DNA of 64,000 nucleotides, taken from assembly GCF_041886205.1 (NCBI RefSeq), contig NZ_CP169029.1; one strand, written 5' to 3'. Shown one piece after another: positions 30,626 through 31,199 of the stretch. The DNA is from Escherichia coli. Lineage in GTDB: Bacteria; Pseudomonadota; Gammaproteobacteria; Enterobacterales; Enterobacteriaceae. The position numbers and the translations under genes were made by a program. The notes under the pieces were generated by a model. That model did no database searches. It saw only the letters and a program-made list of their open reading frames with translations, and was not told the DNA's origin. Within the stretch, counting starts at the first letter, position 1. The number at the start of each line of letters is the position of its first letter.

Positions 30626-30686
30626 AATAAAATCTCAAACGCCCCGCGTTGCGGAGTTAATAAAATGAAGTAAAGGTTTATTGTTG
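30626..30686 (-). promoter_or_regulatory. secM-secA intergenic region (contains secA translation initiation signals)
   Basis: 61-nt spacer between the secM stop and secA start; in the known mechanism an mRNA helix here hides the secA RBS until SecM stalls the ribosome. Confidence 0.5.
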
Positions 30687-31199
30687 TTAGCTGAGGCGTT
30701 GAGGACCAGCACGGATGCCTTGCGCCTGGCTTATCCAGACGGGCGTGCTGAATTTTGCTTGTGGGGTAAAATGCGCATAATCAATGCGATAACCCTTTTC
30801 AGACGGCGTGCCTTCCTGGGTCAGCAGCGCGCTGAGCGTATCCAGTAATGCAAGATGTTGCGCCTGAAGAGGCAAAGATTCTTCAGCAACGGGCAGCGTT
30901 TGCGGTGCCATTGCGAAGGAAAGATGACGGATTACCGTGCGAATGGCATGTTGATGCCAGTAATCAACGGAATAGTTCGAATTCGGGCGACGCGTGTTCG
31001 CTTCCAGCAGGGCCAATTGACCAAAGTTAACTTTGGCTGAAGGCTCGTGGTTGCGGGTTGTCGCTTTTGCGGGCGCGTTTGGTTCGGCGGCGTTGCTGAG
31101 CGCAGGCAAACCTAAACTCGCCGCGACCATCCCTAATAAGAGATGCGGCCAGAAGTAGCGTTTACCAAACTGTCGCCAGCGCGTCAGTATTCCACTCAC
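30687..31199 (-). CDS. secM: Secretion monitor SecM (translation-arrest leader peptide)
   Basis: 170-aa translation from a GTG start, with signal peptide and C-proximal arrest motif [17 protein letters not shown]. Confidence 0.93.
30702..30752 (-). other. SecM ribosome-arrest motif coding segment (FxxxxWIxxxxGIRAGP)
   Basis: Codons for [17 protein letters not shown] read directly from the minus strand, 4 codons before the stop. Confidence 0.9.

Follow-up and report, generated by a model that had tools for sequence, protein, structure and literature searches.

The window analysed here is a stretch of 64,000 nucleotides of Escherichia coli DNA, whose minus strand carries ftsZ, lpxC, secM, secA and mutT in the order known from the E. 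coli dcw-secA region. Its sequence identifies this locus as the secM-secA operon of E. coli. A 701-nt query spanning the regulatory element found matches in 5424 of 5426 complete E. coli genomes. The identity is 100% in seven of these, and the RefSeq annotation of the matching loci reads 'secA translation cis-regulator SecM', followed by secA. Over 841 nt the region is 99% identical to that of strain K-12, in which RefSeq places secM at 107705-108217 and secA from 108279, leaving a 61-nt spacer and the same layout as in the window. The secM product matches the Pfam SecM family (PF06558) over residues 24-167 with a score of 195.9 bits (cut-off 25; E = 4.2e-58), and 762 homologues were recovered with E ≤ 1e-5, of which those carrying names are annotated as SecM. 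In addition, the protein is the same as that of K-12 over residues 1-169 and identical over residues 1-165 to the SecM chains of two stalled-ribosome structures in the PDB (9vvi and 8qoa). A scan of positions 30000-32000 on both strands against Rfam 15 (E ≤ 10) returned no family match; the lack of an Rfam 15 model for the secM-secA RNA is a curation gap and no mark of novelty. Promoter and terminator scanning of 30400-31500 gave nothing above chance. Elsewhere in the window, a REP/BIME-like palindromic unit (GCCTGATAAGACGCG..CAGCGTCGCATCAGGC, with flanks TGTCGGATGCGGCG...CGCCTTATC) occurs twice in the yacG-mutT intergenic region (27262-27470, plus strand).

The secM coding sequence (30687..31199, minus strand) starts with GTG at 31199, comprises 170 codons and ends with TAA at 30689-30687, the same limits as in K-12 b0097. 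For comparison, one genome per species was scanned, which provided 80 Enterobacteriaceae loci with SecM identities of 63-98%. The GTG start named in the original prediction recurs in each of the 66 species whose N-terminus could be placed, and an in-frame stop lies within 30 codons upstream of it in 55 of the 66. Codons 1-37, before AEP (31089..31199, minus strand), make up the presumed Sec signal peptide, which is identical to that of K-12 and of the PDB SecM chains; inspected by eye, the translation has a 15-residue hydrophobic core followed by SNA/AEP, and cleavage presumably takes place after Ala37. The arrest motif, defined as FxxxxWIxxxxGIRAGP (PMC10987492), occupies the 17 residues F150-P166 of the translated protein near its C-terminus (30752-30702, minus strand). 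Gly165 (GGT, 30707-30705) and Pro166 (CCT, 30704-30702) provide the codons that are held in the ribosomal P site and A site, respectively, at arrest (PMC10951299). After Pro166, only the tail codons CAA CGC CUC AGC (QRLS) and the stop codon remain (30687..30701, minus strand), and these tail codons are left untranslated during arrest. An intact motif placed four codons before the secM stop had been claimed on first reading of this DNA, and translation as well as comparison of the C-terminus with the reference sequences confirms both statements.

Between the two genes lies a spacer of 61 nt (30626..30686, minus strand), the length that had been predicted and that K-12 also has, in which an A/U-rich loop is followed by a hairpin and then by the secA ribosome-binding site (RBS). 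The regulated gene, secA (27920..30625, minus strand), encodes 901 amino acids from an ATG at 30625-30623, and K-12 and other RefSeq genomes carry the same start annotation. A 2026 paper on SecA isoforms was set aside, as its subject is a C-terminal truncation unrelated to the region of the secA start.

Folding of positions 30600-30760 on the minus strand, which had been proposed as a check, gave a minimum free energy (MFE) structure of -40.1 kcal/mol (z = -2.48; 3 of 200 shuffled sequences were equally stable) in which the secA Shine-Dalgarno (SD) sequence is paired. The structure contains a long-range helix of 13 bp. Its 5' arm, CUCAACGCCUC-A-GC (30690..30703, minus strand), lies inside secM and runs from the end of the Pro166 codon to Ser170, and its 3' arm, GCGGGGCGUUUGAG (30634..30647, minus strand), lies in the spacer and includes the SD sequence GAG at 30636-30634. 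The original prediction had assigned the RBS-sequestering helix to the spacer, which is correct for the 3' arm (30647-30634); the 5' arm (30703-30690) belongs to secM itself. The anti-SD duplex is centred on GAG. Within the helix, GAG is bound through C-G, U-A and C-G pairs by C30701, which opens the Gln167 codon, together with U30702 and C30703, which close the Pro166 codon; for the window sequence, the ensemble probability of this pairing with the 5' arm is 0.99. The duplex between tail and RBS reaches -19.2 kcal/mol, compared with -10.3 +/- 2.7 kcal/mol for shuffled tails, of which 8 in 2000 were as strong. Relative to the first base of codon Gly165 in the P site, the 5' arm covers positions +5 to +18; given the size of the ribosome footprint, which is established knowledge, most of it would lie within the stalled ribosome or at the entrance of its mRNA channel. 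Since this arm is formed by secM codons 166-170, a ribosome stalled at Gly165/Pro166 can melt the helix. On the grounds of thermodynamic prediction and conservation, the helix is thus predicted to sequester the secA SD.

A second potential partner of the RBS-proximal arm GCGGGGCGUUUG was observed in secM codons 40-44 (CCAAACGCGCCCGC, 31069-31082, minus strand), with a duplex energy of -22.9 kcal/mol against -19.2 kcal/mol for the tail. This duplex leaves GAG uncovered, and it is probably due to chance, because the part of the protein concerned is poorly conserved and some 380 nt distant.

The arrangement of arrest motif, tail and spacer is preserved across the family. The F, the W and GIRAGP of the motif are invariant in 81 sequences, and in every one of these the tail after Pro166 consists of exactly four codons and a stop. 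In the 80 species, the arrest ORF shares the strand of secA and directly precedes it, the spacer measuring 57-68 nt, and both helix arms are nearly invariant (UUUGAGA in the 3' arm is invariant or nearly so), with the A/U-rich loop free in both sequence and length. When the helix was placed on the alignment, 92% of the cells held standard pairs, compared with 34-47% when the partners were slid against each other. Synonymous codon choice in the tail is equally striking: Gln167 is CAA in 64 sequences and CAG in 7, whereas Gln158 is CAG in 81 and CAA in none and Gln160 is CAG in 50 and CAA in 8; Arg168 is only CGC or CGU, and Leu169 is only CUC or CUU, never CUG. Each favoured base is able to pair with the 3' arm. 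Such pairing-biased synonymous codons, in combination with a length fixed at four codons, suggest that selection on the tail (30690-30701, minus strand) acts on the RNA and not on the QRLS peptide.

The helix nevertheless shows essentially no compensatory change. Covariation was scored for two structural variants of the long-range helix, and a single double change among 1040 cells was found, which is no better than in shuffled alignments; changes in the almost invariant arms are one-sided, and conservation of the helix cannot be separated cleanly from the constraints imposed by coding and by the SD. The third base of the Pro166 codon is free, and in the 25 of 80 species in which this codon is not CCU the central A of the SD loses its partner. 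In a 170-nt context, the predicted probability of pairing between tail and SD across species has a median of 0.32, and the predicted drop in the cost of opening the RBS has a mean of 1.2-1.9 kcal/mol. With the 81 loci folded in this context, the SD often pairs with upstream look-alikes or with secA codons 9-12 (AAAGUUUUC). Ensemble folding is therefore sensitive to the context chosen, and the thermodynamic support is weak outside Escherichia.

For the window sequence, the effect of a stalled ribosome was modelled through the RBS opening cost, i.e., the energy needed to make positions -14 to +6 single-stranded, which is a quantity of the model only. The predicted cost is 9.1 kcal/mol in the free mRNA, 6.9 kcal/mol when the footprint of the stalled ribosome (-12 to +15) is masked, and 3.8 kcal/mol when, in addition, the mRNA 5' of the stall is occupied. 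Synonymous recoding of the tail from CAA-CGC-CUC to CAG-CGA-CUG is predicted to lower the cost in the free state to 4.7 kcal/mol. With the footprint alone masked, the RBS is predicted to pair again with codons 148-153 (GCA AAA UUC AGC ACG CC), and the relevance of this predicted re-pairing depends on whether trailing or queued ribosomes cover these codons. In this predicted fold, the segment concerned (GCAAAAUUCAGCACGCC, 30741-30759, minus strand) pairs with the entire initiation region of secA (-19 to +4).

The spacer itself contains a second structure. Directly 5' of the SD region, a short hairpin, CUCCGC-AAC-GCGGGG (30642..30656, minus strand), is part of the K-12 MFE structure and has a probability of at least 0.95 in the modelled stalled state, in which the tail is masked. 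A hairpin is found at this site in all 81 sequences, with 17 stem variants that include compensatory rebuilds (among them GCCC/GGGC, GCCU/AGGC, CUGCC/GGUAG, CUCCGA/UCGGGG, CUCCGU/ACGGGG and UCUCGC/GCGAGG). Its loop varies freely, its 3' end always lies 3-5 nt before GAG, and its mean MFE is -8.4 kcal/mol, compared with -4.6 kcal/mol for shuffled sequences. RNAalifold returned no consensus for the hairpin from a right-anchored alignment because the hairpins stand in different registers, and conservation was consequently scored by folding each sequence separately. The spacer hairpin is the better-supported of the two structures, being conserved in structure and not in sequence.

The 3' arm of the spacer hairpin overlaps a G-run that is likewise available to the long-range helix, so that the two structures compete. 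We infer that in the OFF state the G-run has the secM tail as its partner, and that in the ON state it folds into the spacer hairpin, leaving UUUGAGAUUUUAUUAUG open. By sequestering the G-run in the ON state, the hairpin might keep the A/U-rich RBS open, or it might alternatively serve as a determinant for a protein or an RNase. More than one helix was reportedly described by McNicholas et al. 1997, and the spacer hairpin may be one of them. A single stem-loop is drawn in reviews (PMC10987492, PMC10951299, PMC10501990). That this stem-loop in truth represents two competing structures, with the spacer hairpin selected separately, is a tentative reading that we consider rather unlikely; if it were right, codon choice in a tail that is untranslated when the ribosome is stalled would be all that maintains the long-range helix.

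Taken as a whole, the locus is almost certainly the secM-secA secretion-monitor switch of E. coli. In the published mechanism, the stalled ribosome disrupts an SD-sequestering stem-loop and the pull exerted by export releases the stall; arrest, release by export and the rise in SecA have been published for K-12, whose sequence is essentially identical (PMC10987492, PMC7897499, PMC10951299, PMC10501990). Applied to the window, this mechanism would run as follows. With secM and secA on one shared mRNA, the 5' arm (30703-30690) of the free mRNA would pair with GCGGGGCGUUUGAG (30647-30634) just upstream of secA, and the weak SD GAG would be buried, so that secA would be poorly translated. While SecM is being made, the FxxxxWIxxxxGIRAG segment of the nascent chain, lying in the exit tunnel, would block peptide-bond formation to Pro166-tRNA, and the ribosome would stall with Gly165 in the P site, its mRNA channel covering the 5' arm and preventing the helix. 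The G-run would then be free to fold into the spacer hairpin (30656-30642), making the secA RBS available for initiation. As the SecM signal peptide engages the Sec machinery, a pull on the nascent chain would release the arrest; when secretion is impaired, the stall would last longer and SecA synthesis would go up. Everything testable in silico fits this established model for the window: the order of the sequence elements, the predicted helix and its conservation, and the place of the helix with respect to the stall site are as the model has them. The description of the element as a case of nascent-chain-mediated control, made before any database had been searched, is likewise upheld by the agreement of the Pfam SecM match, K-12 identity, RefSeq naming and the predicted SD helix.

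The same arrangement could also be read as ordinary translational coupling, in which ribosomes that reach the secM stop codon open the helix or re-initiate, without the arrest peptide being what exposes the RBS. A modelled terminating ribosome does open the RBS to the same extent as a stalled one, the long-range helix lacks compensatory covariation, and the switch energies predicted for other species are small. The title of McNicholas et al. 1997, said to be 'Dual regulation ... by distinct upstream elements', would likewise imply a coupling component. Coupling alone, however, requires neither a conserved arrest motif nor the fixed distance of four codons to the stop that is seen in the 81 sequences, and the literature credits the stalled ribosome, not mere passage, with the induction of secA (PMC10987492, PMC7897499, PMC10501990); work with arrest-dead mutants such as P166A is cited in PMC10987492. 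As a replacement for arrest-dependent control, coupling is accordingly unlikely, while it probably contributes to basal expression of secA.

Another reading starts from the spacer hairpin, which together with the RBS would form a protein operator at which SecA represses its own mRNA, the helix between tail and SD being secondary. Compensatory rebuilding that keeps a hairpin at a constant distance of 3-5 nt from the SD in all 81 sequences is what a recognised structure would typically show, and older work by Oliver and colleagues is said to have found SecA binding near its RBS. The sequence and register of the stem, however, vary between genera (the 17 variants given above), which makes sequence-specific recognition unlikely, and the accessible literature ascribes regulation to SecM arrest (PMC10987492, PMC7897499, PMC10501990); we therefore regard an operator of this kind as improbable. 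That the helix arose incidentally where G+C-rich coding sequence adjoins a G-rich spacer, and has no regulatory role, is hardly credible: segment 31082-31069 does pair better with the 3' arm (-22.9 versus -19.2 kcal/mol) and the z-score of the whole region is modest (-2.48), but just 8 of 2000 shuffled tails gave a duplex as strong as the observed one, the tail inverts the codon preference of the neighbouring Gln positions and wholly avoids CUG, the arms are nearly invariant in 80 species around a free intervening loop, and published experimental support exists (PMC10987492). The established model of arrest-dependent unmasking explains the invariant motif, the four-codon tail and the codon bias of the tail better than all three of these readings.

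Several related systems place the element in context. The secM-secA pair of K-12 (b0097-b0098; SecM was formerly gene X) shares with the window the gene order, the GTG start, the 170 codons, the arrest motif, the 61-nt spacer, the SD region and the spacer hairpin, and it differs at codon 170 (ACC in K-12, AGC in the window) and at Gly165, where GGT in the window is a rare synonymous codon. In Vibrio alginolyticus, VemP-secDF2 similarly places an exported arrest peptide upstream of a Sec component, and its stalled ribosome is proposed to unmask the SD that follows (PMC10987492), whereas its arrest sequence is unrelated, its target is SecDF2, it belongs to another genus, and it is not homologous to the secM locus. 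MifM-yidC2 of Bacillus subtilis resembles SecM in that arrest is released by the pathway that is monitored and that an SD on a stem-loop is unmasked (PMC10987492), but it monitors insertion by YidC, uses another arrest sequence and has a transmembrane anchor where SecM has a cleaved signal peptide. In ErmCL-ermC and TnaC-tnaA, too, stalling on a short upstream ORF lets the ribosome remodel the mRNA and turn the downstream gene on (PMC10501990); these systems need a small-molecule cofactor, in contrast to SecM, whose arrest is intrinsic and ends when export pulls mechanically on the chain.

Among nascent peptides that monitor a process of the cell by stalling the ribosome on which they are made, SecM, which monitors protein export, is the founding example, and its arrest motif is widely used as a force sensor. 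The element in the window is an intact, ordinary copy of the textbook secM-secA switch and is already known; an intact SecM is expected in E. coli, and its presence adds nothing new. What the analysis offers as small by-products are the exact split of the helix between coding tail and spacer, comparative evidence for selection on the codon choice of the tail and not on its amino acids, the conserved spacer hairpin, and the gap in Rfam coverage.

A further potential structure lies in the codons of the arrest motif, where an interrupted hairpin of 17 bp (F150-G165; 30706..30751, minus strand) is predicted 2 nt upstream of the SD helix. Among 79 sequences, 80.6% of its cells are paired, compared with 78.5% in shuffled alignments, a value reached by none of 500 shuffles, and covariation is 0.229 compared with 0.204 after shuffling. 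The signal for this predicted hairpin is modest.

Two differences between alleles concern the last codons of secM. Codon 170 (30690-30692, minus strand) encodes Ser (AGC) in the window and Thr (ACC) in K-12. Because the QRLS ending is found in other E. coli strains and in nearly all of the 80 species, Ser170 is the common and ancestral form and Thr170 of K-12 is derived; the 'QRLT' of reference sequences is hence not the consensus of the SecM family. AGC170 adds two possible base pairs to the helix and leaves the predicted RBS opening cost unaltered. A view of Ser170 as a rare allele was considered and rejected, since alignment with strain ZH063 located the rare base in the synonymous GGT codon of Gly165: within a 57-nt stretch, the third base of this codon (30705, minus strand) is the sole difference between ZH063 and the window. 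The exact 57-nt haplotype with GGT165 occurs in 7 of the 5426 complete E. coli genomes, which are the same seven that show 100% identity over 701 nt. In the comparative set, GGT is found at codon 165 in 11 of 81 sequences, and it is predicted to be neutral for both the RNA fold and the RBS opening cost.
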